NCBI GenBank assembly: GCA_965655095.1
Contig: OZ296657.1
Span: 13,268,001 to 13,332,000 of the forward strand
Reading direction: 5' to 3'
DNA: 64,000 nucleotides
Source: Haplodiscus bocki
Taxonomy: Eukaryota
Shown here: positions 25,121 to 51,332 of the stretch, one piece after another
How the letters are laid out: each line of letters starts with the position of its first letter
Numbering within the stretch: position 1 is the stretch's first letter
Translations under genes and position numbers: made by a program
Notes under the pieces: model-generated
Told to the model about the DNA's origin: nothing
Databases searched by the model: none
The model's input: the letters and a program-made list of their open reading frames with translations, nothing else

Positions 25121-28110
25121 AGGCGTGCTCAAATTAGGAGTGAATACGGAGTCACTCCGTATTTACCATAGCACTGCAGCACAGCATAGCTATAAGAATG
25201 ATTGTGACGTCACCAGACTAGTAGCGACGGAACGCGTACGGAACAAATATTCACTCCGAGAGTCAATTTGATAGCACTTTAGCACAGTAAGCTAAGCTAA
25301 TAACACTCAAAAGGTGGATGTAAATCAAAGAAAATGAATAAGTTATTACAAATTATAGCACCTTTTAGAATGAAAAACTCTGTGAATATCCGTTTGTTCC
25401 GTAACGGTTCCATATTGGTCCGGATCAGTTCACTAGGGTATATGATACGGATCAGTAACATGAAAATTAAGAGAAATATGAAATATTGTGTTTTATTTAC
25501 AGCTCATCAATTCCCTTGAGGGTCTGGGAATGTTCTTTTCTTCTGCAGCTCTAATCCGCAGGCTTCGCAAGCATACTGCGACACTAATTTTTATTATTGT
25601 CGTGATCGCAGCTCTCCCCTCATTGAAAACAAACCAAAACCCCATTCAGGAATCACTTGAGTCAAATTCTGATCGACTTTGAAAATACGGTAGTCAAACA
25701 AGGTAATCTAAATTGCATACCGGATCGATTTTTTTTTAGTTCTCTCCTAATTTTCCGGACGAATTGAAAAATAATTGATATGCCAAACTTTTTCAAACTT
25801 TACCTTCAGGGATCTAGTGGATAAACAAATTTTGTTCGAAGTCTTACAGAAAAGGACCTACCATTTTTAACTATCATAACTCTGTCAAAGATCGCAAAGA
25901 CATTTACTTCGTTTCCACCATTTCCGATAGCATCAATTATTAAATGCCCGCCTAACAACTGATTTCTCTAAAAAACCGAAACATGAAATTATCCGAAATC
26001 TTTTGAAACTTCTTTCAATTTAACTATCAATTTATATGGAGGCGACAGCATCAACAAGCTCTTGGACATGCTCCGACTTTTTTTTAACCAGTTGAAGTCC
26101 TTTGGTTTCAACGGACGATCAATTTGAGTACCCCACATAATCAAACTTTGTACGAAGTATTTTTGAATTTTTACAGCCCATCCATTTTAAGTCTGTGTGC
26201 ACTTTTAATCTCAAAAACTACCATTGGTCACAACTTCAAGACTCAATTTTTCAAAGTCTCCAATGATAGTCAACATCGTACCATTTCCCATCTTTGCCAA
26301 AAAAATCGACCACTGCAGTTTTTTCAACAACTCAAAGCTTCATTAAAGTCCTCCGATTATACTAAAGGCTCAATTTACAGCAACTAAAATATTTCAGGGC
26401 CAAGTCAAAACATAACATCTTCCCACTTAAATAATCACAGCAGACAGCCACGAGGTTTTCCTACTATTCAATTTGGTTCAAGTCCTACAACACTTCAAGT
26501 TACTTCTTCATTATAAGATCTGACTTCGGAAAGCCCCCTCGTAAAATTTTTAACAACTTTCATTTTAGCCAACAACCTTAAATCAAATTTGTTGAAAAAA
26601 AATCAACAGAAGTTGGACAAAATATTTCTACTGCCCCGCCTCAGATTCAGTCCAGTCAAAAACACGACGTTTTTAAAATTTTCGAGACCCAACAGCTTCT
26701 ATTCCACTTTTTATCCCCCGTGAAGCAAATCATCAGCAAATTAAACATTGATTTTAGAACAAACTGTTTGTCCTATTCAACCCACAAACCACTCACTACT
26801 TCCCACAAAAGCTCCCAACAACTTTTCACCATTGACGCAGCTTAATGCATATCTTATAACAACTACTACTTCTTTCTAACAGACACTCCAAATATGTACT
26901 GTATATCTTTGCACAACTTAAACATGTCCACTTCCAACTAACATCAATCAAATTCACCAAAAAATTTCTTTTCTAGCAGCCAGATCTATACCCCATTCAA
27001 ATCCACACGTCTGAACTACTACAACATTAAAACCAAAAAACTCTCCAGAAACTTACTTTATACATAACACAATTTCAGATTAGAATTCAATCGGTGTTAC
27101 ATAAATAATCAACCCTTTTTAAATCCCACAAAAGTGAGTACAACCATCAATACTATCCGAATCTTTCCACAAACACCACCTTCTTCATTACAGTTGAGCC
27201 CGTACAAAAGTATTATTAGTCCACCAATTTCAATCCCAGATATATTTCAAAACACCTTGAAAAAACCAAACACAAGACAATACGTAGCTCCACTACCTTC
27301 GGCTCATATATCAATTCGTGATTCCTAATCCTTACCTCAGGCATTCATTCCAGATCTCAATTTTTTTCATGGCGTAATTGAAAAAAAACTGCAGAAAACC
27401 ATTTGGAAAAAATCGGAAACTTTGTCTCTTTTGAACAAGACTGACAACAGAACGACCCAAATTGAAGTTTATTTTGCCATAATTGATTTATGGCTATTGT
27501 TCAACGCTGTCTTGAAAATAAAGCATTAGGTTTCCATACAAAAGTTGACGAAAACTACCAATGACATTCAAATACTTTTGTCCACTTCATTAAACGGCGA
27601 TTTTTGACACTTAAGATATCAATTTAGGGTTCAAACTGAACCCATTGCAATTAATGAAAACGTGATGAAAAGATTCGCCAAAATGGTATTTGGGTTCAAA
27701 CTGCTGTTGAACGAGGCAGCTGTAGAATCTGCACAACTGCTACTAAAATAGAACATACGCAAACCTCACCAACAATTTACCGAGAAAAAGACATTTCCCA
27801 TGAAGTCTAGCCGAACCGTTTCCTCCTGGACTTGAAGTTTTCAAACCATTTGATTCTCTTGTGATAGTAGTTGAAGTGAAGATGTTTCCAATTGAAGAAT
27901 TATTGTTCAAGATTGAATGTGCAAAACAAATAACATTACCAAAAAGGTACATGCACTTGATTTTTTATCTGAAAAATCAACGCAGAGTATAAATACATCC
28001 CAAATTGACCTTGATTCCAGATTAAAACTTGAACTCACAAACAAACTTTTCACTTTTTGCAACGAGTCGATTTAATATTTTTCTGGTTGATGCAGAAGAC
28101 CATAAAATAC

Positions 28111-29947
28111 TGTCGAGCGGGTGGTAGAATTCGGTTCGAAATTATGTTGACACAGACTTGTCATTTTCTTGGTGTGCGGCCGTTACTGATTAAATAAATT
28201 TAAGTCTCAAAGTTGCCCTACCGGCCCGCGTAAAGTATAGCGTGAATTCGCTAGCAAGGACTTAATGAATAGCTATTGGGTGGCTAGAGAATTTGTCAAA
28301 GAATTTGTTTAACGCAAGCAGTTCTGTTATATAAAGTAGGAAATTTATGGCTTGCATATAATACTTGTATTGTCAAACTTGCCAGAGATTTCACAAGGGG
28401 GGCGGTACTGTTTTAAGCGCAGAAGATTTGATTCAAATTCCTTTCTTTTCCAAAAACATTCAAAGTAAGAACATTAGCAACTTTACCGTTGAACTCTGTT
28501 TGATCAATATTTACCAACACTCAGAAATTTAATGCGGAATTATGAATCTACAATTTTTAACTGAAAAATGAAGAAAAAATTGTTGCACGCGCTTTTAATT
28601 GACGCGGAATTGAAACACAAAAATAACAGTAGCTCCAGTGATGAAAAGTAACATCTTTTCTAACCTTGTAGGAGATGAGTTGCCTTTGAGCACCATCTAT
28701 TTGCGTCGAGTTTGTACTAGAACGGAGAAAAAAATCATCGGTATTTTCTAGCAGTTTTTTTTAAAAAAGAACCTCTAAATCAGTTTTAGCTAAGACTACG
28801 TAATTCGCGTAATGAATCAACCTAGCGAGTTCTCCTAGGCCATTACATAGTTGTCAACCCGTAGAATAAAATCTAGGGATTTCGTTGAACGCTGGCTCAG
28901 TCTCGATCAGAAGGTTGACTTAATAACTCAGACACTGTGACTCGGTTTATGGCGTAGCAACCGTGCAATTTCTCCTAGGTTCAGGCAATTACTATCGGAT
29001 AACCAATGAACCTGATTCTGATTGAAATTGGGTTAGTAGGTAATTTCATCTAAGACTCAGCATCATTTCACTTCAATGGAGGCAGCCAATAAAAGCACAA
29101 CCCAGAACGGAAGGACCAAGAACCGATTTCTCTTAGGTATCAGGAAGTTTTGAAGAGTTCTTGTTCAGAGCAGTTTCCGTGGCAACTCTTGTTCAGAGTA
29201 TCTGCTGATGGACCCGATCTTAATTAACTAAGTTCATCTGGTGAGTTGTACTCTACCAGGGTAGTCTTTTTAGATACTAACAATCCGTTTTTTTCCCAAT
29301 GGTGGAATTAGGTTTATAGTTGATAGGTTTTTGGCTATATTTGAATCCTTTCCCAACGATTGGAAACTTCGAGTGTCTTGGAAAAGTTGTCTCTTTTCCA
29401 AAGATATAAACGTTACCAATGTCGGGAAGGCAAATTTCCGTGAAGGTTTCAAGTTTTGAGTTTCCAAATTTTTAGGAGAAGAGAATTGAGAATTTAGCAG
29501 TTTTTGCTTTCGGAGTTGGTAGTTGACGGTAGGCGATCAGGAGTTTTATAGTTTCTCCTGTTGGCGGCCGGCGCTCAGTCTTTCCGAACTCTCGTACCTT
29601 TCAAGGTTATGACCAAGTACGGTAAGCCTTACGCCAAGGAGCACCAAACAAGGTGATCCTCCAAAAAGAGTCAAAAATTGAAGTGTTAGGACGCAAGTTG
29701 TGACTTTTGTGAAGCAATGAAATCAAACTCCGAGAACGGGCGGTAACAAAGAGAAAAGCGTCGTTTCCATCGTCTGAGGCGTGCCAACGAAATTTTGAAG
29801 TTTCAAAATGTGCAATTCCAACTTTGTTCTCGCTCTCCAACAACTATCCTTTCAATCGGTAAGTTACTATTATTTTTCATTATAACTTTTATTATGTCAT
29901 TTCTAAATTTAGAAATAGCATTGTTTAGCGTTATGGCTAACGCAACA
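28111..29947 (-). repeat. 3' LTR (1837 bp)
   Basis: Direct repeat of 49488-51328; TGTCGAGCGG..CGCAACA; purine tract AGGGTGAG precedes it on the minus strand. Confidence 0.95.
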
Positions 29948-29988
29948 ACTCACCCTAGTAACAAAGTGTTGAAAATGATGGAGGGCCT

Positions 29989-30902
29989 CTACGGAAAAGG
30001 AAAGGGAAGAGAAGACTGGGTAGGTTGTTTTGGGGGGTCAAAAAAGGAAATATCAAGGTTACTGGTGTCATTGTAGAGATAGCCATCAGTTTCATTAAAA
30101 GTTTCGTATGTGGGAAGGAGCACGCGTGTCGCGTTGTTGGTAAGGTAGAGAAGTCAATTAAGGTTGGTCGGGTTGATTCTGTGGGCTCGATTGTTTGGCT
30201 CCAGGCATTAAGAGGGTTCAGTTGGTCACGCATTCTGATCTGGATTGGCTTTGAAACCGGCCGAGGCAGAATGTCATCATATTATCCTGCAGATATAGAG
30301 AGAGGGATGGAAGCCCATGTTCCGATAGCAGCGGCGAAACCGTAGGGGTACCAGTTCAAAGAAAAGTTTGAGCCGTATGGGTGAGAGCGAACGCTAGGGC
30401 TGCGAAGTTGGGTGATTGGAGCGTCTTCCCGCCCAGGTATCAGATACCATAATCTGGCGGAGTCAAACACCAGTTTTACAGAGGAAATCTTGAACAACAT
30501 GAAATTACAATTACTGTGCTCAAACTGGCAGATTTGGTCGCCCATAGTTGAGAGCTGAAATTGTAGTGAATTAAGCTTCAAAATGTATCTGCGCGTTTTA
30601 GAAGAACTACGCTTCTCTAAGACTCTAATTTTTTATGCGAGTGTCATTAATGAAGAAGACTTACTTGTTATTTGTTGGTCAAGTAAGTCGATCTGGGGCT
30701 GTAGAAGAGCGAAGTCTCTTTGGAGACGTTGGACCAGCTGCTTGAGGGTTGTCCGTTCTAATTCTTCTGTCTCCACATGCCTGCGCAACTGTTGTAGAAT
30801 AGAATATATCACAATTGCAGGTGATAGCGTTGAATATCTATCTATAGGAGGTGCTTGGGTGGGCAAAGTAAATTCCTCAGGTAATCCAAATAATCCAGGC
30901 AA
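29989..30902 (-). pseudogene. TRAF-like gene (coiled coil + TRAF-C/MATH domain) inside the LTR element
   Basis: Coiled coil LERTTLKQLVQRLQRDFALLQPQIDLLDQQI; then MLFKISSV..LRSPSVRSHPYGSNFSLNWYPYG..GTWASIPLSISAG*YDDILPRP..IRMRDQ..GYLYNDT..ISF, matching the TRAF MATH pattern (IWKI..SPPFYT..GY..LYLNG..GTHLS..GEYD.LLPWP..LLDQ..Y.KDDT). Confidence 0.8.
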
Positions 30903-31100
30903 AAAAATAACTCGTTTTCAACAAACTAGTAAAATCAAAAGTTTAGACAAAATTGAAATAAAAAACTGAAATTTAAATTATTACTGTGAATTAGCTGTTA
31001 TAGCTCGGAGCGGTGCAACAAGTCGCTGAGAGGAGAGGAGCGTAGTCCCGATGGTAATTTCTTGTCGGTGGCTATTCCAGAGGAGTAATTCCCAGGAAGA

Positions 31101-31604
31101 TTATTCCCGTTTCAATCTATAATGCAGATGAGGGTTGAAACGAAGGCATTTCACGACTCTCGCCAGTCGAGCGAAGTGTTCTCTTTTGTGTTGTCGGGAA
31201 ATTGTAAGTCTATCTCGGCTACTAGAGTTTTGGCTGGTGGGTCCTTGCAAACTGCGTAGTTTCCGTTTGGATCGGCCGCGAGCACTGCGGGAAGAAGAAA
31301 TCTTGGATCTAGCGTCTCCAACAGAAGAAGAAATGGTGGAAGGTTGTAATTGGTCACAAGTGACAGTAGGAGCAGAGCAAAACGAAGATAATCCTTTTGT
31401 TGTTGATACAGTGTCCGATTGTGCATCGGGTGGAGCAGGGTTTGACGGGACAGTTATTGAAGGAGGGGAGAAAAGAGTTACTACTGGCTCAACTGGCTGT
31501 CCCAAAGTTGATGGCGTCAAAGTTAGAAAGTCGAATTCCAGATCCGTCAAGACAGGCAATGGGTCGTCACTCTCCCTTGCTTGAAAATCTAAACACTGAA
31601 GCAT
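31101..31604 (-). CDS. Accessory ORF, Ser/Thr/Pro-rich with basic C-terminus (167 aa), unknown function
   Basis: Open 167-codon frame right after env, same strand; SRSARGRSKRKLR basic tract. Confidence 0.45.
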   Translation of the reverse strand: MLQCLDFQARESDDPLPVLTDLEFDFLTLTPSTLGQPVEPVVTLFSPPSITVPSNPAPPDAQSDTVSTTKGLSSFCSAPTVTCDQLQPSTISSSVGDARSKISSSRSARGRSKRKLRSLQGPTSQNSSSRDRLTISRQHKREHFARLARVVKCLRFNPHLHYRLKRE

Positions 31605-31620
31605 TAAACGAAAAAAATTG

Positions 31621-33747
31621 TTAAACAGGTGACAATGGTAATGTTACCGTTCTCATTGCAGAGTAGAGGTGCTTTTCTTTCTTTTTCGCACCCTCTTTCA
31701 CCTCATGCATATCCTTTTTCACACATGGACCTACCTCCATGTGTTCAACAGCGGTTAGCGCCGGAGCACGTGGGTTATACATGGAAGTTAACACAGTTGT
31801 CAATGCAATATTGTATGATGCACTCAGAAAGGTCTTACCAAACCCCAGAGTGGAACCGGTTAACTTATCTATTTCCATGTAACGCATGATCATAACTATT
31901 ACATCAATTAAAAACTTGATGAACAGAAAGAATGAAAAATAGATTCCGCAATGCTCAAGTACGTAAACTACAGGTCCAAATGTGTCCAAAAACGGATCTT
32001 TAAAATATCGAGCTGAAATAATCTTAACCACAAAGAACTCGGTTCATGAGGTATATTAGTGAAAACCGTCTGTACCTTCTTGGGCAGTGGTGTAGACAAA
32101 AAAAATTTGTGCGAAAATTTTAAGTACCATTCTCGAAGCCGCATTGATAAGGATGCTATCACAAAATCCTTTGCTCGTTACGAGTGTACATGCCTGCATC
32201 CTGTAATCCAGTAAAAGTGTGAGAAGCAACCGGGCTAATATACTGAGGTCCAAATATGGCAGGTTTGTCTTGATGTACGATACCAGGTGTTAGGGTATAC
32301 CAGGAATCTTCCTGATCCATGTCGAGTTGGAACAGGTTTTTGATGCGATCAGAACAGTTTTGAGTCGTAGCATGAGGATAGGTTTGTCGGGTTACAGGGT
32401 CAACGAATTGAATTTGTCCTCTGTAAAGAATCAGAATTTTATTATAGCACTGGTTCATTGTGTGAAGAGGCGAATAAACTTTTGGGCAAAGGTAGAGCCA
32501 TGCTACGCTTCCATATGTTTCCAGAAACATTGATCGGTTACCATTGAGCATGTAGCCAGCCAAACGAGGGTTTTCATGGCCTAGCATAAGATTAGTCAAG
32601 GTTTGAGTACGTTCTTGTTCGCATTGGTTTTGTAATAACTGTATTTCCGTCGCTTGGAGTAATCGCGAGCTTTGAAAAAATAAAAAATAAATCTTCGTTG
32701 CAAGGTGCATTTCATGGTAGGCAATCTTCAAATAACTATCGGGGTTCTCTGTTTGTAACTTTTGTGTTCCCTCTAACTGAGGATTGTGAGCGTAAAGTTG
32801 AAGGAAGTGGCCTTTCTCCTTTGGTCTCAAAGTTTGTAGGATCTTGGTTGCTCCAGTTTGATCGCGACCCAGGTTTCTCCCGATGTCAATGTCAGAACCT
32901 TCGCTTGAGCTATCCATATAAAAAGAATCATAGTCTGTGGGTTGGATAGATGTTGGCTTTCCGCAATGTTTTTGAGTGTTGTTCTTCACTTCAAATACGA
33001 ATTTAGAGCTAGAGTCGGCTCCACTGATAACGTAACACTTTCTTCCTTGTTTTACCAGGTTAACCTCCTCAGTTCAAACAATCGAGATTTGCGCAGTTGT
33101 CAGGATAGTCCCATATGTAAGGATAGGGGTCTAACGAAGTAGTTTCACATCCCAGTTCTTCCAAAGAGCATGGTAAAATTAAACCAGTATCAGATAAAAT
33201 TTTCCCGTTTTCTAACGTAACTTTCAGAGTGGTGGTTTGCATGTGAGGGAGGAAGGTGTCACGAGTGATCCAACCTTTACTGTTACATTCATTCCTGTAG
33301 TCAACTCTGGTGTCACTAGAGGTTTCTACAATAGGGTTTTTTGTGTCGAAAACAAAACTTATCGAAAGCCCAAGTAACGCTCGACATTGTTCTGGAGAGA
33401 TAACAATGTGACTTGTAATTCCTGCAAAAGTGTGATCAATGCTGCTATGATCATGGTGTCCACAATGCTTTTTTTTTCCGGACGTGTTGTAATTGGCTTT
33501 TTGTAACCTTTAATTCTTTTCTAAGATGTTTGGTGAAAAGGACAACTTTAGCCTTACTTATTTCCAATTCTTCAGGCATAATAAGGCTAGGTCGTACCTG
33601 ATTTATGACGTAAAGAGATTTATCAGTCATTTCACTGCAATCAAAATGAGCTGCATTCAGAGCATAGCCAACCTGATCTTCATCTGGAGTTAAATTGAAA
33701 GCTACTTCGACAGTATGTGCGACCATTTGGAAAAATATTAGCTTCAT
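31621..33747 (-). pseudogene. env: env: chuvirus-like class III fusion glycoprotein, frameshifted
   Basis: N-terminal hydrophobic stretch, AAHFDCS (YDC-type start), Cys-rich ectodomain, helix LQNQCEQER..LAGYML, AWLYLC..QCYNKILILYRGQIQFVDPVTR, C-terminal TM GIYFSFFLFIKFLIDVIVMI. Confidence 0.75.
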
Positions 33748-33999
33748 CGCTAGAATACATCTGTAGATGGTAGCTAAGAAAAAGGAACAGTAAAAAGGAA
33801 AGCCGTAATCTTCAAGCGGCAACTTTGTGGGCACGAATACAAAGCCGGAGCAAAAATTTTGTAGTAGGCGCTCCGCTACTGCGAAACGACACCGAGATTT
33901 CTTTAAAGGACGTCGGACTAGAACCGAGTGTCAAAAAGGGACGCCGGACTAAAACCAGTTCGTCAAAAAAGTGCCAAATACGGTTTTTTAACCTAGATT

Positions 34000-34915: not shown

Positions 34916-35309
34916 ATCACATCTGAGAACGATGCTTCAGTTAAAACACAGCTTTAAACTTTTCTTTAAAAAAACTAAATATTATTTTAGAGTATTCATT
35001 GAAAATAAGTTTAAGGTAAAAAGTTTTATTCAATTGATTTAGGCGGTTTAAAAATTAACAGAATCGTGCACCAATATTTTATGTTCTTTTCTTTGTTCCA
35101 TTCTTTTTTCCGTTTTGCTGTGCTTTGTCACAGCAGGGTCTTCCGGGGGAAAAGTGCATTTTTTGTCGGGTAGGGAAGAAATAAAGTCAAGAATGAAGTG
35201 AGGAAATGATGGATTGAAGAGAACTGGATGCGGGTAAACAGAGAAGTAATTTTTGTCGTGTAGGTACTTTTGGTGGTATTCCATTTGTTATTCCCTTTGT
35301 TGTTATAGG

Positions 35310-35765
35310 ATGGCAGAACCCCCGCCATTCGTCGTGGAGGTGGTAGGGTGGGAGAGGATTGACCCTCTCCCGGAGCTCCCACTCTTCCAATCCACGGCCA
35401 AAGAGTCGTTTGGCGGCTCTCTGTACATCTTCGGGGAGCCCGCCATCTTTTGGTTAGACGGTTGGAGAGCCTTTATGAGGTATCAGCGGGGCAATGATGA
35501 AGCACCAGTTAAAGAGGCCCCGGTGTTGGCAATGTTCCGGAGTTTCTTGGTCCGTTTTTATGGAGAAAACTGGGAAGCGACGGTCTTTTCCGACTCGGGG
35601 GAGGTGCTATTGTTCGAACTCCGAGCAATCCTTGCCGGGTGGCTCGGCCTCACAATGGAGCAGAGGGAAGAGTTTGCTCTGGCCATGGACGGTTGGCCAC
35701 AAGCTGTTTTCCGGGCGCGGGTTAGGTCCATGGCGAAAGCCGGGCGCTTCCGGTGCCTGGAGTGA
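35310..35765 (+). CDS. Antisense accessory ORF (151 aa), GC-rich, unknown function
   Basis: Open ATG..TGA frame MAEPPPFVVEVVGWERID..AGRFRCLE in a GC-rich island; preceded by pyrimidine tract + TAG (acceptor-like). Confidence 0.55.
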   Translation: MAEPPPFVVEVVGWERIDPLPELPLFQSTAKESFGGSLYIFGEPAIFWLDGWRAFMRYQRGNDEAPVKEAPVLAMFRSFLVRFYGENWEATVFSDSGEVLLFELRAILAGWLGLTMEQREEFALAMDGWPQAVFRARVRSMAKAGRFRCLE

Positions 35766-36375: not shown

Positions 36376-38150
36376 CTAAAGTTTATAACGCTGACGAGTG
36401 AGGGTACGAAGAACCGATTGAGAATTAGGATCGTTTGGCTGAGGTCTGTAATACCTTGGTTCTCTTGCTTTAGACTTGAGACTGTTCCGCAGAAATTGTT
36501 GTATCAGAGTAAGTGGTCTGGTTGCAGCCGAAGTTGACAGTTTTTCCTTCGCCGTCTCCTGTGAATGTTGTGATAGTTGTTCAGGTGTATTGGGTAGGGT
36601 TGGCGAGAAAAATTGAGGTGAGTCAACTCCCGAGTCACTGCTGGTGACTTTATCACGTTTGAGTGAAGTGATTGCCCGAGCCGTAGGTGATGGTTTGATT
36701 GGAAATGGAATGGGGTCTTCTGCGACTGGCTCAGTAAAGCTGTTCATTTTCCCAATTCTTTCTTCCAAGAAACGTTCATAAAAATCGTCATCATGTCGTT
36801 GGTCGTGTGGTACATATTCTTCAATCATAGCTGGTAATGATTCTTCTTTAGGATAGTATTCAACCAAATGGTTAGGGTGGACCGTTTGCATAACTGATCG
36901 GTCGTTGTAGTCTTGAATTTGATAGGTAGTACTAGTTATACGCTTGATAACGGCAAATGGACCCAGTCGTCGCTGTTGTAGTTTTTGACTTTTTGATAGG
37001 TCCTGCCGGTGGTTTTCGTAAAAAACTTTCTGACCGACGCCCAGACGGCGTCCTACTTTAAATTTGTTCCTGTATGCATGGGAACAAGCCCTCTGTTCGC
37101 GACATCTTTTCAAAGTAGGGGAAAAAATGTTTAAAGTCTCGCTCTCGATCTAACGGAGGGTGAGAAAGCTGTGGTTGAAGTAAATTCTGGAGAAGCTCAT
37201 TCTTCGTAGAGTTCTCGTCGTGAGTATGAGGAGGCAAGTCCGTACAGAAGTCGGAACAACATAAGTTATGTTTCTTTCGGTAGTGTCCCAATTTGACAGA
37301 CATGGGAATTTGTGGTTTGGCGTCGAAGACGATTTCGTAAGCCGTTTTACCAGTCGTGTAATTAACACTGGCATTGTGCTCGAACGCAAACTTTGGCGCG
37401 AGAGAAGCCCAGTTAGTGCCAGCATCGTTCAGAGAAATTCTCCAATAGCGAGCAATTTGCTGGTTCTGAGTCTCTACTTTGCCGTTTGTCTAAGGCGAGT
37501 GAGCTGTACGTGGTCGAAGGGTAATTCCCAACTCTTTAGTCCACTTGATGAAAACTGTGTTGAAAAAGGTTGTCACTCTATCGTTTATGATAGACTGAGG
37601 AATTCCAAATTGAAGTATCCATTTTCCGACTGCGGCACTGGTAGCTTGTGCTCCGGTATTAGTAACAAGATAGACCATTGGGAAACGCGAGAAAGAGTCA
37701 ACTAAGAGGAGACTATGGGTGTTCCGGTTACTCGGTGGATGGAAAAGTCCTTTATGGTCGATATTTATTGCGCAAAACGGTGCGGTATCACTTGGCCATT
37801 CTTCCAACGGTACCTCGTTAAGATGTTTAGGTTTTGGTTTATTATTCTGGCATGCAAGACAGTCAGCTGTTAAGGCCCAGATCCAGTCGAACATCCCTGG
37901 CCAATAATATAATCTTTTAGCGTTAGCATACGTCTTTGAGGCTCCCACGTGTCCTCTTATTAAAATGTCCCATGCGGAAGCAAGCTGAGAAAAGAGGTAA
38001 AGGTAAGCAGATTCGTAAGTTCCTTTCGGTTAATGTATCAGAAGGTTCATTATTACACAGAAGTTTGCCGTGCTCTTCTATGAGTAGTCGATCTAGCTCT
38101 TGGCCGTATCTGAGCAGACCTTTAGACTGTCAGTTTTCTGGAGCTTTTAG
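36376..38150 (-). pseudogene. pol: pol: integrase (HHCC, DDE core, GPF C-terminus)
   Basis: HVGASKTY..YYWPGM..CLACQ; NIDHKG..LVDSFSRF..FGIPQSIINDR..TNGKVE; RRLGPFAVIKRITSTTYQI. Confidence 0.9.
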
Positions 38151-38899
38151 GTCAGGAGAGATACCTCCTTGAATCCAGGAGCGTACAACACTGAGCATTG
38201 GATCTTTTGTGTTGCTCGTGTAATATGGTAGGAACATCAAGATAGAAAACCTTTACAACATCAACCAGATTGGTAATCAAATCCCGAGTTCTCAAATGAA
38301 GAGCAGCCGTAGCTGATAGTCTCTTTTTTGCGAAGAAGGTATCAGGATTACTAAGTACCGAGTCATGAGTTGCTCGAGCCTTGCATAGGCGGTAGTGATC
38401 GTTGGCATTGATTTCACAAGCGTAGGCATCTTCATGCTCGTTCATATCGCAATCTTCGTGAACTCTATGAGTTCGACGTGTGAAGAGGCTCCAGTGTCCT
38501 CGGTTCGTGCCGTCTCAGTCACATTGATAGAACTGTGTGTTCCAGTGGAGCTTCCAGATGGTGATAATGATACTGAAGACTGTGGTCTGCACGGCCGTCG
38601 GAACTGGTTGATAATTTCTCCCATTCGGAAACAGTCTGAAGCTAGCTGTACTGAAGACGTAGCAAGGTCAGTACTAATGGTATTAGTAGAAAAAATTTCA
38701 CCGTCAATATGCAATCGGAGTATCTTCTGATCTTTGCCTTGTTGGCAATGAATAGGGTAAAAATCGTTACACGTATCAGCTGTGGTATCTTCGTGGTTTA
38801 TTCTGTACGTTATCTGTTGTCCTTATTCGTCAAAAAACTGAATATCTTGTGGTAGTTTTTTGTGTTGAAGTTGGTGATTTTGATATTCGTCAATGATCA

Positions 38900-39542
38900 C
38901 GTTCCGGTTAAGTATATCAGTGAACGCTTGGTTAGATCCTGGCGTCCAGATGATCTCCAAATTCTGGAACTTCGTTATTATAACCTGTTACCTGAAGAAC
39001 CGATGGGATAACTGTCTTTTGCGTCCCCATAGAGAGAGGATGGGTTTGTGGTCACAATACAAGTATATTGGAAAAGGAGATCCAATAATGTAATGCTCAT
39101 AAGTTTGCAAAGCTGAGACAATCCCACACAATTCCCTGTGGAGTGTTGACATCTTTCGTTCAGCTTTTTCAAAAAATTGAGAATTGAAGAAAATGATTCG
39201 CTTCTCTTCCGCGAACTGTTGTATTAGAATGCAACCAGTTACAACATTAGACAAATCTTCGTGACTATGAATACGATACTCAGTTAAAGGAATGGCGAGA
39301 CTTCTATTTTCACTGATTCTATACCTTATCATTTGGAAGACCTTCTAGTGATTTTCAGTCCAATGGAACAACGTAGAACCTCTAATGAGCTCGTAGAAAG
39401 GTTTTCTGCCCACGTGAAGGTTTTTGATGTAGCAACTGTAAAATCCAAGATATCCCTGCACTTTCATAACATCTCGTTTGCACTCGGGTGATTTGAGATT
39501 CTTTAGGTCATTGACCCGTTTGGCAATTAGCTGTATTCCGTC
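38900..39542 (-). pseudogene. pol: pol: RT C-terminus and RNase H
   Basis: DGIQLIAKRVNDLKNLKSP; GCILIQQF..STLHRELCGIVSALQTYEHYIIGSPFPIYLYCDHKPI. Confidence 0.9.
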
Positions 39543-39547
39543 GGTAG

Positions 39548-39668
39548 GCCTAGACCGTGCAGCAAAAATCAGTTTAATATTGGAGGTAGGCAGTGCCTAC
39601 CATGCCAGATATTAAGCTGACAAGAACAGATACTACACATGATCTTAGCCAAAAGGCCGAGAAGAGAT
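39548..39668 (-). ncRNA. U2: U2 snRNA copy, 3'-truncated (nt 1-121)
   Basis: ATCTCTTCTCGGCCTTTTGGCTAAGATCATGTGTAGTATCTGTTCTTGTCAGCTTAATATCTG.. with branch-recognition GTAGTA and Sm site GATTTTTG. Confidence 0.95.
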
Positions 39669-39766
39669 AACCCAAAAATATTCTATCTCCACATATAAAT
39701 CACAAATGTAACTTCCATCATGCAGTTTTTCAAATTCGCACATTCTCAGCTACCCCAGCTATGACC
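39669..39766 (-). promoter_or_regulatory. U2 upstream region, probable snRNA promoter
   Basis: ~98 bp nearly identical to 44138-44235, upstream of the other U2 5' end. No PSE consensus recognised. Confidence 0.55.
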
Positions 39767-40547
39767 TTGACTTCTTACAACATGACAGGACAACGATCCA
39801 ACGTCTTTGCATTCATTGTAGGCGCTAATTGTGGTAGTTGTTGCCAAACATCATGACACTGAAACTGAAACGCAAACTTTTGACCTTCAAAATTATGTTA
39901 TCAAACAGGTTGTCATCGAAAGTGCATGTAAAATGATTTCGCTAGAACACCCGTTAATGGTCTCAAAATGAGCAATTCACTTGCCAAAATGGTTCCGTGA
40001 GAAACTTTTGCAGTTTACGTACACCCAAACGTGCTAAAGCGCCAAATTGGTCTGACAGAGCTACGTAGGTCTGACAGAACTGTAGGAACCTGCAAAAACT
40101 CTTTTTGTCTACGTCAACGGCAAGTCAAAAAAGGATGTCCAATTCTCCGTAACATTACGTAAGAGTCCTAATTCACAAGTTATGAGCTTAAAATTGGCAC
40201 AAAACCAAGCACCCGCGAAGCAGTAGCAAAAAAAACCGTAAAACCAAACGTCCCAAAAGACAACGTATGCAACCTTCTGACTGATGCACACTTCTTATTC
40301 CCCAAGAAGAGTCTTCAAGCCTGAAAAGACTTCTGGTTGAGTCGAATAACCTAACTTATGGGCGATACTGGAAGAAAAAGATGAGAAACAAAAAATTCAG
40401 CTATACTGCAAACACGAAAACCCAAAAACGAACTTCATCAAACGATTCAACAAAAATGCATAACATCACTCAACACACTCATTATTTCAACTTCAAGGAT
40501 CACTGTTTAGGTCCAGTTGAGTAGGTAATGAGTTCAAAATGGTCGAT

Positions 40548-40696
40548 TGGGTCGTACCCGGTGGGAGTGTAAGACCGGGACAATCCCTGGTCCGGCTAAA
40601 GCAAGCTTTTTTGCCTAGACCGTGCATCAAAAATCAGTTTAATATTGGAGGTAGGCGGTGCCTACCATGCCAGATATTAAGCTGACAAGAACAGAT
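40548..40696 (-). ncRNA. U2: U2 snRNA 3' portion (nt ~38-186) downstream of the retrotransposon insertion
   Basis: ATCTGTTCTTGTCAGCTTAATATCTG..Sm site..stem-loop IV CCCGGT-CTTACACTCCC-ACCGGG..GACCCA. Confidence 0.93.
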
Positions 40697-43600
40697 GAAA
40701 TATTTGAATTAGTATAAATAAAACAAAATATACGAGGTAAGTTTTTTTTCAAACACTGGTTAGAATCATACATTTACAAAAGTAAATATCAAGAAAAATG
40801 GGGTTTGAGTTTTTGTCAGAAAAAGTTTGATTAATAGATTTGCGGAATTCCTGTCAGATGTTCTGCGGAGATGTTTCGGGAATGGTGGATGACAAGAGCT
40901 GCGGCTTTGCGAGTAAACGTTGTGATGTCCTTCTTGCTGCGGATGAACTTCTGGAGCACAGGGTATGAGGATCTCGAAAAACTGCCCAGAGTACCCAGCT
41001 GGATTGTGGCGATTGAGGTAGAAAATCCACTGACTTCATAGGCTCGTTTCAAGTTCTCATATTTCACTTGCATCTGCTGAGCATTCCATTGGAAAGTTTC
41101 TTGAGATTCAGCAGATACTTTGATGTCAATGATGGCAGCTTCTTTGGTCTGTTCGTCCTGCACAATGATGTCCGGCTGCATGTTTCCAAAACGTTGCTCC
41201 TTCAAAATTCTTAGCCGATGAGGAAACTGAGAGGCTAGAAGGTCTCGGACATCGTTGTGCCGTTTAATGATTTTCTTCCTCATCACGCTGCAGTTACTTA
41301 ATGTATGATTTAGGGTCTCACGGTCGGCTTGGCATTGACGGCAGTTTTGATTTTCAGGAAGATGATTCCACACAAAGTTTGATCTTACAGGGACTAGATT
41401 TAGCCTTGCGCGGTGGATGAATCTGAAGTCGCAGAGTTTTGTATGAAAGTTGAAGACTGCTTTAGTTGTTTGCGGTGTTTCGGCCAAAGTCCTCCAGAAT
41501 CGTCCTTGATTCGGCGCCCGTTGTATTTCTTTCAAACTCTGTTTCTGCAGGTATCGGGTAAGAACAGGCCAAGGGTCTCGGTACTTGGCGCCTTCTATAG
41601 AAAGCGTGACACTGTCCTCCAGCATGGTCAGTTCGACGTCTGTGTCCAGGTACTTTGCTAGTCTTCGTAAGCTTCTGGCTGTTTCCTTGATTGTATCACC
41701 GTACCCTCTCACGCTACCACTGTTGATTGCGTCTATAGCTTCTTGCAATGTTTTGTCGTCGAGTAACACGCGCTTTAGGTATTCGCCAAATGGTCCTGTT
41801 GTATTGAGGCTTCGGATGAAAGTTTGGAGAGTCATTTTGCTTTTGGCGAGAACTAGATCTGGCAGACCGGGACCACCATACATGCGATGAAGATGCAGGT
41901 ATGCCGTAGCAGCCCTTTCGGGTAGGTACAAAAGTCGTTTGGTCATTCTCCGAAATTGTCGATTCATCTTCTCCAGTTGGGTCATTGTGCTGTTAGAGTT
42001 CTCAAGCAAGTGGAACAGCATCGGGTAGATCTTTATTCGCAGTGCATGCAGTTTTTGCATTGGGGTCAACTCTGAGCATTCAATTAGTTCAGCCATGCGG
42101 AATGTTTTGTCGAAACACGAATCCAGTCCTTGGATTGTTGAGGGGAACGCTTCTGTACCAAGGTACTTGTATGCCCTGTCATCTTGGACCTCGGGAATGG
42201 ATGTTCCGTCAATGTCCAAAGTCAGAGACCTCAGATTCGCTACACCACACTTCTTTGCATTGAAAGAAAAACCAAGACGTTTTGCCAATTTCACTGTTCT
42301 GTTGAAAATGTCTTGGACCTCACTTTCTTCGTCTATGATGATGGCCAAATCATCCATATATCCAAGACAAACTGAGTTGGCCGACGTTGCTTCTTTGAGT
42401 ACGGGGTCCAAAACCAGATTAAAGAGGAGACCACTTAATGGGCAGCCCTGCTTGACACCGCGTGTGACTGGTACTGGTCCTGCGAGTTCTTCTCCTTCAA
42501 CGCTCACAGGCGTTGTCTTGCACCCCGCATATCTTATCAGCTCCACTATCCACTGGGGACAGTTGCACTGCTTTAACGCCTCGAAGATTAGCTTCTGGTC
42601 TACACTATTGAATGCATCTGACAGGTCCAGATAGATTACTGTCTTTTTCTTCTTCAGAGCGTTCCCAACTGCCAGTGTGTTTTCAGAGACACCACGTCTT
42701 CCAAAAGCAGCTCTTTGGCAGAAACCAATGCCTTTATTTACTTCAAGCCATTTGCTCAAGCGTTTGTAGAGAATGGAGGCGAGTAGCTTGTATGACACGT
42801 TTGACAGGGCTATTGGTCTAAAGCAGCGAAGTTCTTTTTCTTGACCAGCTGTGTACTCCTCTGGCTTCTTGAAGAGCATCATACTATTGTATGATTTCCA
42901 GCAGGACGGAGTTAAGCTGCTATAACCCATCGCATGTAGACCTTCAGTAAAATTCTTTGCGAAAACTTTTTCTTGTCTCACTTTGTCATAAGTCCATCCA
43001 TCTGGTCCTGGGGCTGAGTTTTTGTGTTCTAGTGCTCGTTCAACTTCGTACACTGTGAAACGACGGGCTAGGTCTTCTCGTCCCTCATTGCATGGCAGCC
43101 AGTGTCTTGTTGTCAAAGATGATGCCCCGTTGTTGTTTGGAGCACTCAACTGCTGTAACAGGCCATAGCGAAGATCTATCTCATCGACTTGACAAATGAT
43201 TTCAGGTACAAACTCGATGCGTTTCAATGCCGCTTTCATATCTTTACTGTAAAGTTTTTGTAATTCTGCAGCAGTCATCCTTGATTGCTGATGATGTGTC
43301 CTTCTCGCAGTGTTCCGTTTCATCTTTTCTTTCGGAGGCAGCAAAGCATTCAACCATTCGTCACATTCTTCGCCTTGCCAATTCAGATCGTTCTCATGTC
43401 TTTCATAGCTGTCGGGATTGACGCTTTCAGCATCGGTGTCATCTAGCTCTGCCAAAGGGGTACTAGAGACTGTACTAACAGATAGCAAGTCATCTGCTGT
43501 TTCGGCCACCGCCACAGTTTCTTCTATCGGTAACAAGGGCAAAGGAGGAGCAGGGGGTGCTGGTGGTAGTGATGATGACGCCGGTGGAGGAGACAGCCGC

Positions 43601-44107
43601 GACTTGGATGCAAGAGTAAGGGTTACCTTGCATTTACGTCTGTGACTACTCAAAGCCTTCTGAGTCCCAAACGAGCTGTTGCAACTGGGACATGGGTAAG
43701 TAGTCACCTGCACCGACGGGTCCCCGAAATGAGAACCTTGATGTGTTGTAGCTTTTCTGCGGTCACTTGTCAGGAACTTACAGTAAATACACTCAAAAAC
43801 CAACTCGTTTGCTTCTCTGCATCCAGGATCGCTCTGTCTGCAGACCCTCGAGTGTCGAAAAACGTCTCTCTTGAACGCGGACTCTTTGATGGCTCGGTCA
43901 CACGCCACACAGATTAGTGGAAAAGCCACAGGGAACGGCACCACTGCAGTTTGGCCATCGAAAATGAAGCTCGACATCTGCACGGCTCGACACGTGAGGT
44001 TGAAGCTGTCTCACTGCTCCTCCTGTCTTCTTGGACACTTCCTGCTGTCGTCTTGCTGTAGCGTCAGGAAGTAGGCTCGTCTTGACTTCAAGCTCGACAA
44101 AGAACAC
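40697..44107 (-). mobile_element. U2-targeting RLE non-LTR retrotransposon (Utopia, NeSL group)
   Basis: Single ORF inserted in U2 after nt 37/38 (GTAGT(A)|TCTGTTCTT), same orientation, no poly(A). Confidence 0.9.
40831..43977 (-). CDS. Intact non-LTR polyprotein (~1048 aa): three N-terminal Zn fingers, RT, CCHC, restriction-like endonuclease
   Basis: CVAC..H..C, CIYC..H..H, CPSC..H..C; SAPGPDG, FRPIAL, LDLSDAFNSV, GVKQGCPLS, YMDD, YKYLG; CRQC..ETLNHTLSNC, RHN, QPDI..IIDIK. First ATG at 43977 (the track starts at GTG 43983). Confidence 0.95.
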   Translation of the reverse strand: MSSFIFDGQTAVVPFPVAFPLICVACDRAIKESAFKRDVFRHSRVCRQSDPGCREANELVFECIYCKFLTSDRRKATTHQGSHFGDPSVQVTTYPCPSCNSSFGTQKALSSHRRKCKVTLTLASKSRLSPPPASSSLPPAPPAPPLPLLPIEETVAVAETADDLLSVSTVSSTPLAELDDTDAESVNPDSYERHENDLNWQGEECDEWLNALLPPKEKMKRNTARRTHHQQSRMTAAELQKLYSKDMKAALKRIEFVPEIICQVDEIDLRYGLLQQLSAPNNNGASSLTTRHWLPCNEGREDLARRFTVYEVERALEHKNSAPGPDGWTYDKVRQEKVFAKNFTEGLHAMGYSSLTPSCWKSYNSMMLFKKPEEYTAGQEKELRCFRPIALSNVSYKLLASILYKRLSKWLEVNKGIGFCQRAAFGRRGVSENTLAVGNALKKKKTVIYLDLSDAFNSVDQKLIFEALKQCNCPQWIVELIRYAGCKTTPVSVEGEELAGPVPVTRGVKQGCPLSGLLFNLVLDPVLKEATSANSVCLGYMDDLAIIIDEESEVQDIFNRTVKLAKRLGFSFNAKKCGVANLRSLTLDIDGTSIPEVQDDRAYKYLGTEAFPSTIQGLDSCFDKTFRMAELIECSELTPMQKLHALRIKIYPMLFHLLENSNSTMTQLEKMNRQFRRMTKRLLYLPERAATAYLHLHRMYGGPGLPDLVLAKSKMTLQTFIRSLNTTGPFGEYLKRVLLDDKTLQEAIDAINSGSVRGYGDTIKETARSLRRLAKYLDTDVELTMLEDSVTLSIEGAKYRDPWPVLTRYLQKQSLKEIQRAPNQGRFWRTLAETPQTTKAVFNFHTKLCDFRFIHRARLNLVPVRSNFVWNHLPENQNCRQCQADRETLNHTLSNCSVMRKKIIKRHNDVRDLLASQFPHRLRILKEQRFGNMQPDIIVQDEQTKEAAIIDIKVSAESQETFQWNAQQMQVKYENLKRAYEVSGFSTSIATIQLGTLGSFSRSSYPVLQKFIRSKKDITTFTRKAAALVIHHSRNISAEHLTGIPQIY

Positions 44108-44137
44108 CTGATCTCAGCCAAAAGGCCGAGAAGCGAT
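44067..44137 (-). ncRNA. U2: U2 5' end (nt 1-~30) followed by a diverged U2-like leader
   Basis: ATCGCTTCTCGGCCTTTTGGCTGAGATCAGG-TGTTCTTTGTCGAGCTTGAA..GCCTACTTCC. Confidence 0.85.
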
Positions 44138-44235
44138 AAAACAAAAATATTCTATCTCCACATATAATTCACAAATGTAACTTCCATCATGCAGTTTTTC
44201 AAATTCGCACAATCTCAGCTACCCCAGCTATGACC

Positions 44236-44590
44236 GCTTTTCAAATTTATTGCTTTTGCCCGCATTGGAATTATCCTTCTGAATATCGTTGCAACCAACT
44301 TTTGAACTTCCGAGATTTTTTGCTGGAAAAGGTCGTTATTTGTCTGATCATTCAATTTATGCTCGATACCTAATTTTTTGATTTTCTTTTGTGTTTCATA
44401 ATTTTGTATGCTTTTCCCACTCAAAATCTCTGTTTCATCAACATTAACAGATAGTTGAGTGGCATCGCAAAAACACTTTACTCTGTCAAATAAGGTTTCC
44501 AGAGATCTACTTTTAACGTAACAAGTTTTATCATCAGCATAGGCTGAAACTTTAGTGACAAAATTGGTGTTTATAAAAGGGTCGTTATAG
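44236..44590 (-). pseudogene. L1/Tx1-like non-LTR RT fragment
   Basis: KVSAYADDKTCYV..FCDATQLSVNVDETEIL..IKKLGI. Confidence 0.75.
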
Positions 44591-44597
44591 GGTAGGC

Positions 44598-45330
44598 AAA
44601 ACAACGTGTCCTAAAACGTTCACTCTTTGAGGAAGAAGAATGTTTTTTCCTGAGCGGGTTTCAGACCGGCTTCCCTCATTAAATTGTGGTACTCGTGGAT
44701 ACTCAAGAGCATTTCTCCTTTGTTTTGTGATTGCATTATAGTGTCGTCTATGTAGGTTATTGTTGTCTTTTTTTTTAATCAGCGGCTCGAAATGGATTGT
44801 CATTAGTCGGCTGAAAAACTTAGGTAATCCACATAGTCCATAGAACCCTCCGATATATGTGTACTGTCTACCACCAATGATAAAGCTAGTCAGCTTCTGG
44901 GTTTCAGGACTCAGTGGTACTCGATGGTATGTGCAGGATAGACCACTGACAGAAAAGAATTTTTCGTTTACTCAAGATCATTTGTACAGGTTATAGAGGT
45001 CACGAGTAGTTAGTAAGGTCAGTGACAGATTTTAGGAATCGAGCTTCTATGACTTGTTTCATATAGTCGCTTTTGTGCATCAGAATGATGCGGTTAACAA
45101 ACAGTGATCTCATTTTGTCATTGTCTCCCATTTCTCGAATAATAATTTCGTCATTTAGTTGAGTTAAGGGTTTCTCCAGTTTTTTTTAAGTGCAGTGGTA
45201 CTTTGCTAGGTGTCTGCTTTTTCAATTCTACACTTGGTTTCAACTATACATGAAACTTTTGACGAATTTTACCAACGTCGAACTTGTGTTGCGAGTAGAC
45301 ATACCTAGAATCAAATAACATGTCGATAAG
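44598..45330 (-). pseudogene. pol: pol: RT N-terminal part
   Basis: YSQHKFDVGK, KVPLH, YHRVPLSPETQKLTSF, ITYIDD, FLGHV; resumes at 39542. Confidence 0.9.
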
Positions 45331-45629
45331 GAGAGTCACCTTTTCATCGGTAATATCAGAGAACTGGAAGCCAAATTCCTTCATGTATTGCACAAGTTCT
45401 TTCGGCTGGTATTGTAAATAATGTTCAATCAGATGATTGTTATAATCTTTATCCCGAAATGTAAGAAACTGTTCATCGCATGTAGGCTGACAAGATTTAG
45501 CTTCTCTAGTGAAATCCGTTTCCAAGTCTCTGCCGTGCAATAGAACTCTTCGCTGTACCTTTCGATTTCGTCGTCAGCTTAGAAGTCGAGGTCTCCTTCT
45601 GAGGACAAGGCATGTACTCCATTTTTTTC

Positions 45630-46056
45630 TAAAGTGTAAACTACTATTCGAATATTTGAGTCGGCGAAAAAATCCTTAAGTAGTTTTACAACATCTTGCC
45701 AGTTCATTTGATCAAGTCCGCATCCAATTGTAGGAATTGCGATGGCCGAGATTCCATACAATCGTGCATGGGACTTCATTTCCTCTAGAGTTAAAGATAA
45801 GGTACGTAGGTTAGGTTCTTCAGAATAATAAGTTTTCGTCACCAAATTGTAGATATATCGGTTCCCAACGTGGTCCCATAATTGAAAGGTTTGCCCTGTC
45901 AATAATTTTGTCCGTCTGCATGCATCTCGAAGTCCAAGAATCTGTTGAGAGCAGGTCGGCGAACCCTTTGCTCATCTTAGCATCGGCTGAGATGCAAAGC
46001 CCAATGGAGTGTGGTTGTTGCAATGTTGAGTCTTTGGTACCAAGGATAATTTGTAA
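45630..46056 (-). pseudogene. TARG1/OARD1 (Poa1p-like) macrodomain within pol, one frameshift
   Basis: SIGLCISADAKMSKGFA..RYIYNLVTKTYYSEEP..LEEMKSHA..IAIPTIGCGLDQMNWQDV..IRIVVYTL aligns by eye with human TARG1 (SLAHCISEDCRMGAGIA..RYIYYLITKK..LEAMKSHC..MPRIGCGLDRLQWENV..ITVYTL). Confidence 0.9.
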
Positions 46057-46499
46057 ACAATCATCTGGAGATTGCGCGGGAATTTTTGAGTGTAAAAGAA
46101 AACAGTCATTGCATTTGTTGTCACTAGTTATTATGGCATTGGTTAACTCATAGGGGTTCCTGATTTGGTACTTTGGTTCTTTTTTATTGACTACTTCCAA
46201 AAACGAAAATCCATTTCGTCCTCTAGGGAGCCTTATCTGACGGTTTTTGTTAGTTTCGATCAGTATTGGGAGAGTGGGTTCAGGCTGAGTGCATATGATA
46301 TCAACAAAAAAAAGACCAGTCGACACCGCTTCCCTGTTGGGTTGAAAAGTTGAACCAGGAGGGATGAGAGACTTAGGATCTCCAGGCGAGTACTTCCAAC
46401 ATCTTGCTCTTTTAGCGTCAACGTGCATAGTATAAAGCAACCGGTTTGTTAGAATTCGAGAAACATGAGGAAAGCTTTTGTTTTGGTGAAGATTTCCAT

Positions 46500-46840
46500 A
46501 ACAGAAAGTTTTTGGAGGCTGCCATAGTTCATTACCGGGTGAATTGAAATGAATTCCGGAAGTCTGGTTCTAACAGAAGTCCATCCCGAGGAGGTATTAA
46601 GTTTTCGTTTTCGGAATCCAGACAGTTAGAGGAAATGAATATTCACCATTAGGGTCTTAAGTGAACTCTATAGTGGCGTAACCGATCATTAGTACTATTG
46701 GCTCGAATAAGTTTTGGTTAATTTATTGATTCTCTGCACCATTTTAGGATGTGGGAATTGTGAAATCTCCCAGAAAGTCCGATAAATGATGATCGAGCAG
46801 GAAACTCCTGTATCCAGCATGAATTCAATTTCTAGTCCAC
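46500..46840 (-). pseudogene. pol: pol: aspartic protease
   Basis: IEFMLDTGVS at 46801-46830; LLGMDF at ~46575-46595. Confidence 0.85.
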
Positions 46841-46986
46841 TATCTTTTTGAGCTTCTCCGGTGGCGAAATAGAAAATATTAAAGCTAAGTGTTCAACTCC
46901 TGGTGCCATCGGAGTCAGACCTCGGAGACCTCATCAGTTTAACGGGCAGAGGTCGGACAATGCATTGACTGAATCGTCTGTTGTGG

Positions 46987-48380: not shown

Positions 48381-48474
48381 CCAAAATTTTATTGCAGTCA
48401 ACTTTGTAAGACAGGTGATCCATTAATCCACCATAGACATGAAGTTGGAACTCGTTTACGTGGGGTTCTGGAAA

Positions 48475-49450: not shown

Positions 49451-49467
49451 CAAAGAAAAAAGAACTG

Positions 49468-51328: not shown

Positions 51329-51332
51329 ATAC

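Follow-up and report, generated by a model that had tools for sequence, protein, structure and literature searches.

A RING-less TRAF gene as cargo of env-bearing Ty3/gypsy elements in Haplodiscus bocki

TRAF genes carried by retroelements and viruses

Large DNA viruses commonly carry captured host signaling genes, whereas LTR retrotransposons rarely do so. The one LTR-element precedent found is Burro of planarians, which rests on domain matches. Burro/GYPSM1 are gypsy-like LTR elements with a MATH_TRAF_C domain and with an env that is akin to the fusion proteins of mononegaviruses (PMC6431247). In these features they resemble the element of Haplodiscus bocki described herein, which is gypsy-like as well, resides in a soft-bodied invertebrate, and combines MATH_TRAF_C with a mononegavirus-related env. 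In Burro of Dugesia tigrina, MATH_TRAF_C likewise constitutes a separate accessory ORF (PMC6431247). However, Burro extends over about 30 kb, and its TRAF, BIR, BCL2-like, ankyrin, and env domains lie within a giant ORF1 or ahead of it (PMC6431247), whereas the H. bocki element measures about 18 kb, with env as a separate gene after the integrase and TRAF as a stand-alone last gene behind a second accessory gene, orfX. The H. bocki element has neither the length of about 30 kb nor a giant ORF1 polyprotein of the Burro type, in which the env, BIR, BCL2-like, and ankyrin parts are in frame. Compared with Burro by description and not by sequence, the TRAF capture is likely independent since the probable donor is a lineage-specific RING-less paralog.

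Virus-borne TRAFs with the same fold (E 7e-13 and 2e-12) and a length of 206–296 aa are found in iridoviruses (ISKNV ORF111L and the grouper and knifejaw entries). They differ in that they belong to DNA viruses of fish, show an identity of 19–20%, and, in the case of ORF111L, are pro-apoptotic according to excerpts of PMC3352826; the iridovirus TRAF is a separate capture. Vertebrate TRAF1 (PDB 5E1T and 5H10) resembles the element protein by lacking a RING, by combining a coiled coil with TRAF-C, and by its fold (excerpts of PMC4858697 and PMC11117997), but the identity is only 20–28% and orthology is not implied. The same clade as two TRAF genes of the host contains Convolutriloba macropyga LOC142342694 (XP_075250303.1–306.1), a RING-less TRAF with the N-terminal helix that is common to the element proteins. 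Members of this clade are cellular, contain introns, and have one zinc-finger remnant and a host-type receptor groove, whereas the element copies are intronless and exhibit 31–38% MATH identity to them.

TRAF genes in gypsy-like elements (Burro) and in iridoviruses are therefore known already; new are the size, the gene order, and the likely donor. No published report of this TRAF-bearing element or gene was found; an annotation could exist in repeat databases such as Repbase and Dfam, in subscription journals, or in the supplementary files of papers on acoel genomes. In H. bocki, a single genome presents the likely donor, the lost intron, selection, and spread over several recently active lineages.

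Architecture of the element and its TRAF gene

The window is the whole stretch of DNA analyzed, namely 64,000 nucleotides of contig OZ296657.1 (positions 13,268,001 to 13,332,000), and coordinates are counted from its first nucleotide. Its element comprises the following features.

28107–28110 and 51329–51332, no strand: two copies of the 4-bp target-site duplication ATAC, in the flanks
28111–29947, minus: 3′ LTR, about 1.84 kb, TG...CA, 97.6% identical to the 5′ LTR
29989–30915, minus: captured TRAF gene by Pfam and solved-chain matches, broken by five lesions
about 30510–30030, minus: TRAF-C/MATH part of the TRAF gene, by the fold of an intact relative
about 30834–30510, minus: coiled coil of the TRAF gene, by the fold of an intact relative
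ahead of the coiled coil, minus: short N terminus of the TRAF gene in the window copy
30981–31580, minus: orfX, second accessory gene in the env–TRAF interval, one stop in the window copy
31624–33810, minus: env, Monjiviricetes-type fusion glycoprotein (PF24664, E 2.6e-19); the upstream end is approximate, the Pfam match beginning at 33753
36376–47006, minus: pol (presumed protease region, macrodomain, RT, RNase H, integrase), broken
39543–44598, minus: nested 5-kb insertion inside RT, outside the family, with a 1059-aa non-LTR retrotransposon frame
46937–48390, minus: gag (Retrotrans_gag, weak Ty3_capsid), broken
49467–49484, minus: primer-binding-site-like stretch starting TGG, just inside the 5′ LTR
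49488–51328, minus: 5′ LTR, by comparison of the LTR pair

Within the element, gag is followed by pol (with macrodomain, RT, RNase H, and integrase), a gap, env, orfX, TRAF, and the LTR. Every gene of this copy is broken; env is divided into four pieces with three stops, and pol is split by the nested insertion. With TG...CA LTRs, a target-site duplication, and gag–RT–RNase H–integrase followed by env, the element belongs to the env-bearing Ty3/gypsy (Metaviridae) type, an assignment based on domain order and Pfam matches (Integrase_H2C2, SH3_Tf2-1, and Retrotrans_gag). The presumed protease region of pol gave no Pfam match. The window contains no tRNA gene, and a tRNA matching the primer-binding-site-like stretch was not found.

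Several further observations were made on this copy. A macrodomain (PF01661; 45540–45950, minus) is situated within Pol ahead of RT and occurs in all five elements compared. The LTR differences are clustered, with 37 in the first 480 bp, eight in the last 100 bp, and one across the intervening 1.26 kb, which is attributed to gene conversion or assembly collapse. Hence, the identity of 97.6% understates the age of the element, with which the heavy decay of its genes agrees. The 1059-aa frame of the nested insertion is open and contains C2H2 fingers and an RT; no exact target-site duplication of at least 8 nt was found around this insertion. A GC-rich antisense frame of 171 aa (35250–35765, plus) is located in the integrase–env gap; it is conserved at about 70% in 10/10 copies fetched and has no Pfam match. 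The purine run ahead of the 3′ LTR (29948–29960, minus) is short and imperfect.

The TRAF stop ends at 29989 and the 3′ LTR is reached about 40 nt farther on, at 29947, so that the placement of TRAF as the last gene ahead of the 3′ LTR, as described in a preliminary description of this locus, is borne out. Lentiviral nef, too, is the last accessory gene before the 3′ LTR, where it overlaps U3. The position is alike, but there is no homology, the TRAF gene ends short of the LTR, and the element is of the Ty3/gypsy type and not a retrovirus. Upstream of the window TRAF, neither a RING nor a zinc finger is present, also in agreement with the preliminary description; the next upstream frames are the separate orfX and then env.

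The window TRAF frame (29958–30917, minus, with X at stops) shows a coiled-coil stretch and then the TRAF-C signature. It matches TRAF-mep_MATH (E 1e-5) and MATH_2 (E 1.5e-4), in both cases below the curated cut-offs, and solved TRAF4 chains with E about 1e-3 (7 sequences). An intact relative, in contrast to the window copy, exceeds both Pfam cut-offs (E 2e-17 and 5e-17). Together with the fold of this relative, the matches agree with the earlier reading of an intronless coiled-coil and MATH gene. The gene starts at 30915, 13 nt beyond the range originally assigned. At that position, which is aligned with the start codon of the other copies, the window copy has no ATG; it is further damaged by a frameshift near 30900–30907, in-frame stops at 30635–30633 and 30284–30282, and a frameshift near 30097–30101. 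The TRAF-C signature had been described as reading through one stop: the signature is indeed present, but the damage amounts to five lesions including two stops. The TRAF copy within the window is a dead relic.

The fold was derived from the intact relative. Aligning 18 close copies gave an unusable model (pLDDT 38), whereas a broader alignment of 22 rows yielded one with a pLDDT of 76. This latter model consists of long helices at residues 27–80 and 86–135 and a TRAF-C sandwich. The sandwich matches TRAF5, TRAF4, TRAF1, TRAF3, and TRAF2 at E 3e-14 to 1e-11 (Foldseek), and the Foldseek matches of the model span TRAF1–6. According to the predicted helices, a TRAF-N coiled coil is located directly ahead of TRAF-C; its a and d positions are hydrophobic in 11/15 and 9/15 cases, compared with 6/38 and 6/35 elsewhere. 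Within the TRAF-C signature G-x-Y-D-x-x-L-x-W-P, D213 and P219 are present in 63/63 copies and W218 in 57/63. The RING and several zinc fingers of TRAF2–6-type proteins are absent from the element frames, while a similar search detects both at the locus of a RING-bearing host TRAF.

Spread, selection, and origin

A genome search with the MATH part returned 3364 candidates, of which 150 were scored and all match; at least 150 matching copies thus exist, which is a lower bound and no copy number. The order env–orfX–TRAF–LTR is found in 10/10 copies fetched with 20 kb of context, and gag–pol plus two LTRs (97.1–99.7% identical) in 8/10. Twenty-one of 63 aligned TRAF copies are intact from the ATG to the shared stop and 42 are not, whereby the intact share is biased upward since these are the top-scoring matches; three near-identical local duplicates had been dropped beforehand. 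Besides the lineage of the window, three further lineages hold TRAF at the same place, giving four in all. In these three, the TRAF frames are longer or shorter, the gene order is the same, and the LTR pairs are 95–99.96% identical. With some LTR pairs 99.9% identical, the TRAF-bearing clade has been active very recently. The elements measure about 18 kb, and gag, pol, env, orfX, and TRAF each occupy a frame of their own. Between lineages, the identity amounts to 72–89% for RT, 48–79% for gag, 50–78% for env, and 27–53% for MATH, which makes MATH the most divergent protein compared.

Outside this genome, 0/80 metagenome TRAF loci have gag, pol, env, or orfX nearby. Two candidate relatives, P0222 and P0265, have their best matches in the H. 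bocki genome at 45–46% and 44%; both are known as proteins without genomic context, and a TRAF-bearing LTR element was seen herein in one species only. IMG/VR contained no relative of the element TRAF (six candidates, none confirmed), and the ESM Atlas returned TRAF/MATH clusters, none with a useful taxon.

Other arrangements of the gene occur as well. A tandem array (L100 and L101; G000:C4, about 103.37–103.40 Mb) repeats a 1.8-kb unit with orfX and TRAF about 15 times, with most frames open and 282–307 aa long. A second array, of the distant lineage, is located at C10, 65.79–65.81 Mb. At L083:834–3563, an internally deleted element with gag near TRAF lies just downstream of a RING-bearing host TRAF gene.

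To assess selection, three subfamilies, comprising 30, 12, and 9 of the 63 copies, were compared through net pairwise distances with 60 bootstrap resamples; the 12 ungrouped copies, including that of the window, were left out. The net dN/dS of TRAF between subfamilies is 0.09 [0.05–0.14], 0.07 [0.04–0.10], and 0.13 [0.08–0.21], at net dS values of 1.15, 1.23, and 0.20. Off-frame controls gave ratios of 1.0–1.15 and 2.0–3.0 in the shifted frames, and the env-end control gave 0.05–0.16. The coil (0.04–0.15) is constrained as strongly as MATH (0.05–0.10). Within subfamilies the ratio rises to 0.24–0.52, as expected where neutral decay after insertion is mixed in. Judged from these substitution patterns, the TRAF cargo gene is under strong purifying selection. 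The preliminary description would have been contradicted by a single copy evolving neutrally; many copies and a net dN/dS of 0.07–0.13 were found instead.

The second accessory gene shows a similar regime. The orfX protein has an acidic N terminus, a Pro/Ser linker, a basic segment, and a conserved C-terminal part of 80 aa, and no Pfam match. Its net dN/dS between subfamilies is 0.14–0.18, and 0.06–0.08 in the conserved C-terminal 80 aa, from which orfX evolves under purifying selection. It is present in all four lineages (the window and loci L123, L131, L133, L146, and L244), with a pyrimidine-rich, acceptor-like TAG site at its start in every lineage. Since in two lineages no ATG follows this site, orfX is probably a second exon. 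In two lineages, the TRAF ATG overlaps the orfX stop or closely follows it. By its layout, orfX may resemble a transactivator or an RNA-binding regulator. As a separate observation, the net dS between subfamilies is 0.10–0.13 at the env end versus 0.9–1.2 in orfX and TRAF (L031–L099). Recombination at the env/orfX border or a homogenized env could produce this contrast, which suggests exchange of a 3′ cassette.

The likely origin of the gene was traced by a profile search for proteins with the N-terminal helix common to the longer element TRAFs, one of which led to two single-copy host TRAF genes. Neither has gag, pol, env, or an LTR pair within 30 kb, and both contain a GT–AG intron at the same place inside MATH. 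In DNA runs, the coverage of one of them, gene A, is low and uniform, compared with thousands for repeats, by rough estimate. Gene A opens with an ATG exon, in which one zinc-finger remnant resides, and has an in-frame stop 15 codons upstream. A RING/zinc-finger profile found nothing in the 20 kb upstream of either gene, and the same profile finds exons of the RING-bearing host TRAF. Full-length relatives lack a RING as well, among them the acoel RefSeq protein XP_075250303.1 of C. macropyga; P0294, a member of the 90% cluster of this protein, shows 71–73% MATH identity to the two host genes. Judged by this identity, the host would be an acoel. With E-values of 7e-12 to 3e-4, a helix profile built solely from element proteins matches the RING-less host clade; at the RING-bearing host TRAF locus, it matches no frame. 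The helix motif FPL-x-x-x-K-x-x-Q-Y-L-H stands out in two lineages; in that of the window, it is eroded. The RING-bearing host TRAF was rejected as likely donor with 21–36% identity over short stretches and 20–33 bits, versus 80–128 bits for the RING-less clade; herein, its exon-by-exon comparison lowers the 20–33 bit scores.

Two quick trees were calculated. Elements and the RING-less clade group together against 12 other animal TRAFs with an SH-aLRT of 99 and no resolved sister relation. In the first tree, the RING-bearing host TRAF, represented by one partial exon on a long branch, falls within the same unresolved group; in the second it was left out. Monophyly of all element TRAFs has a support of 0, though it is not rejected, so that two captures are possible. 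The lineage farthest in RT and gag is also the farthest in MATH, which a single old capture would predict. At the position of the host MATH intron, the frames of three element lineages continue without interruption, and the frame of the fourth also runs past it, which argues for a passage through spliced RNA. We infer a single ancient capture via spliced mRNA, with a host TRAF clade that was already RING-less as the likely donor. Compared with this clade, the element has dropped the last zinc finger and, in the lineage of the window, also part of the N-terminal helix and linker. The earlier proposal of a captured TRAF module is thereby supported, both by the lost intron and by the kinship with the likely donor clade. 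Its reading of the missing RING as a truncation that created a decoy is not, as the closest cellular clade is itself RING-less and the RING was most likely lost before capture.

A third host-type TRAF occurs in a decayed repeat of about 6 kb (L104–L108, L110, L129, and L135), which has kept the MATH intron. Six loci were recorded, two of them being the arms of one inverted pair, and the identity between places is 67–78%. The repeat is regarded as a DNA-level amplification and contrasts naturally with the LTR copies, which lack the intron.

Receptor-binding strand and proposed role

The receptor hot spots of TRAF1/2/3/5 comprise a serine triad, a β3 Arg/Tyr pair, and a conserved β7, as given in excerpts of PMC6125299. 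They were mapped onto the element and host proteins via alignments with TRAF1 and TRAF5. The host clade has the β3 arginine and the β7 glycine in 9/9 proteins and, unlike TRAF1/2/3/5, no serine triad, which is absent from the element TRAFs too. In the lineage of the window, both the β3 arginine and the β7 glycine are replaced and the loop is shortened. Arginine takes the place of the β7 glycine in 59/63 copies, and the new strand residues are conserved (P259 in 61/63, T260 in 60/63, and R262 in 59/63). In two further lineages and P0129, the β7 glycine is replaced by a different residue. The most distant lineage, which is very recently active, retains both residues and thus a host-like groove, and loss of the groove in all lineages is ruled out by it. 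By alignment, the receptor-binding strand appears remodeled in three of four lineages. With these residues replaced, the protein may have a partner other than a host receptor, and simple competition for receptor tails is doubtful for the lineage of the window, whose binding strand differs from that of the host.

Acoels are reported without TLR, MyD88, IRAK, and NF-κB, and their Rel domains are NFAT (excerpts of PMC12849515). In the H. bocki genome, a low-sensitivity search gave zero matches to the RHD DNA-binding domain (one candidate). The genome contains one Rel dimerization-type exon, two TIR matches, one of which is fused to ankyrins, a clear TNFR cysteine-rich exon, and two BIR matches.

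With slightly better than even confidence, the gene is read as a selected accessory TRAF that was retro-copied once from a RING-less host TRAF and acts as a trimeric adaptor retuning TNF-receptor/TRAF signaling (cell death/JNK and not TLR/NF-κB) for the element. The TNFR exon and the two BIR matches in the genome count in favor of this pathway. Expression would proceed via a 3′ spliced RNA on which translation of TRAF follows that of orfX, since the acceptor-like site is found at the orfX start everywhere and the TRAF ATG lies at or near the orfX stop in two lineages. The protein could then trimerize with host TRAFs through its coiled coil in the manner of TRAF1–TRAF2. TRAF1 forms homotrimers as well as heterotrimers with TRAF2 and recruits cIAPs (excerpts of PMC4858697), the TRAF1–TRAF2 trimer assembling through the coiled coil (excerpts of PMC4858697 and PMC11117997). 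A shifted TNF-receptor, JNK, or cell-death output may keep the cell permissive, and a pro-survival effect would be exerted in cells where the element is active. This signaling effect is suggested by analogy with the TRAF family. From the same excerpts, the RING-less TRAF1 acts both negatively and positively. ISKNV ORF111L binds TRADD and induces caspase-8 apoptosis (excerpts of PMC3352826), so that the effect of the element TRAF may be of either sign.

Rather unlikely, in our estimate, is an adaptor that has been re-aimed, with the scaffold binding partners other than host TNF receptors, for example a restriction factor or a product of the element itself (the Env tail, Gag, or the orfX protein), and with a partner specific to each lineage. 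The strand, of which three of four lineages have differently remodeled versions and which is conserved within the lineage of the window, would fit such a protein, as would the position of MATH as the most divergent protein and the net dS near 1 in orfX–TRAF against 0.10–0.13 at the env ends, with the 3′ cassette exchange this suggests. On the other hand, constraint is as strong in the coiled coil as in MATH, and the most distant, very recently active lineage has a host-like groove. The MATH identity of 27–53% versus 72–89% for RT is compatible both with targets that change and with a constant target. Less probable still is a positive scaffold that switches on JNK, proliferation, or apoptosis and thereby LTR transcription or particle release. 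Downstream of several receptors, TRAF1 acts positively (excerpts of PMC4858697), ISKNV ORF111L is pro-apoptotic (excerpts of PMC3352826), and the donor being RING-less already, nothing needed cutting off; a germline-inherited element would, however, gain little by killing its cell.

The model of the preliminary description, a RING-truncated dominant negative that blocks immune signaling from TLR/TNFR to NF-κB, is given a low probability. Its RING-less architecture and last-gene position are real, and the TNFR exon, the two TIR matches, and the Rel dimerization-type exon could be counted in its favor. However, the RING absence was most likely inherited from the donor clade, neither TIR match is established as a TLR, the ankyrin fusion characterizing one of them, and the RHD search, a weak test, gave no match. 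As acoels are reported without TLR, MyD88, IRAK, and NF-κB (excerpts of PMC12849515), TLR/NF-κB is an unlikely target for a decoy. That the gene is a neutral passenger, a functionless retro-copy carried along, is hardly conceivable, provided that the codon alignment holds: the window copy and 42/63 aligned copies are not intact, but single-copy decay hits gag, pol, and env alike, the gene is kept in four lineages, and the net dN/dS is 0.07–0.13 over dS above 1.

In acoels, which reportedly have neither TLR nor NF-κB, a TRAF kept by a parasite under strong selection points to the host TRAF/TNF-receptor axis as a candidate for their defense. The element TRAF also represents a knock-down target in animals used for work on regeneration and symbiosis. 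Tentatively, and with well under even confidence, a broader picture can be drawn in which retrovirus-like acoel elements carry a spliced orfX and TRAF cassette and a Pol macrodomain, an arms race has given each lineage a re-aimed TRAF of its own, and a large DNA virus acquired the same host paralog independently. If true, an NF-κB-independent, TRAF-centered antiviral or cell-death pathway would be suggested for acoels, whose immune signaling is reported as missing.

A last observation concerns contig L152 (39 kb, of which 15 kb were examined), which is gene-dense and intron-free like a large DNA virus. It contains genes for HSP70, a kinase, a BIR+RING IAP, and three TRAF/MATH proteins, one of them from the RING-less donor clade. 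Judged by gene density and gene content, the contig looks like a large DNA virus. Its TRAF beside an IAP and the apoptosis domains of Burro point in the same direction, namely to a shifted TNF-receptor, JNK, or cell-death output.
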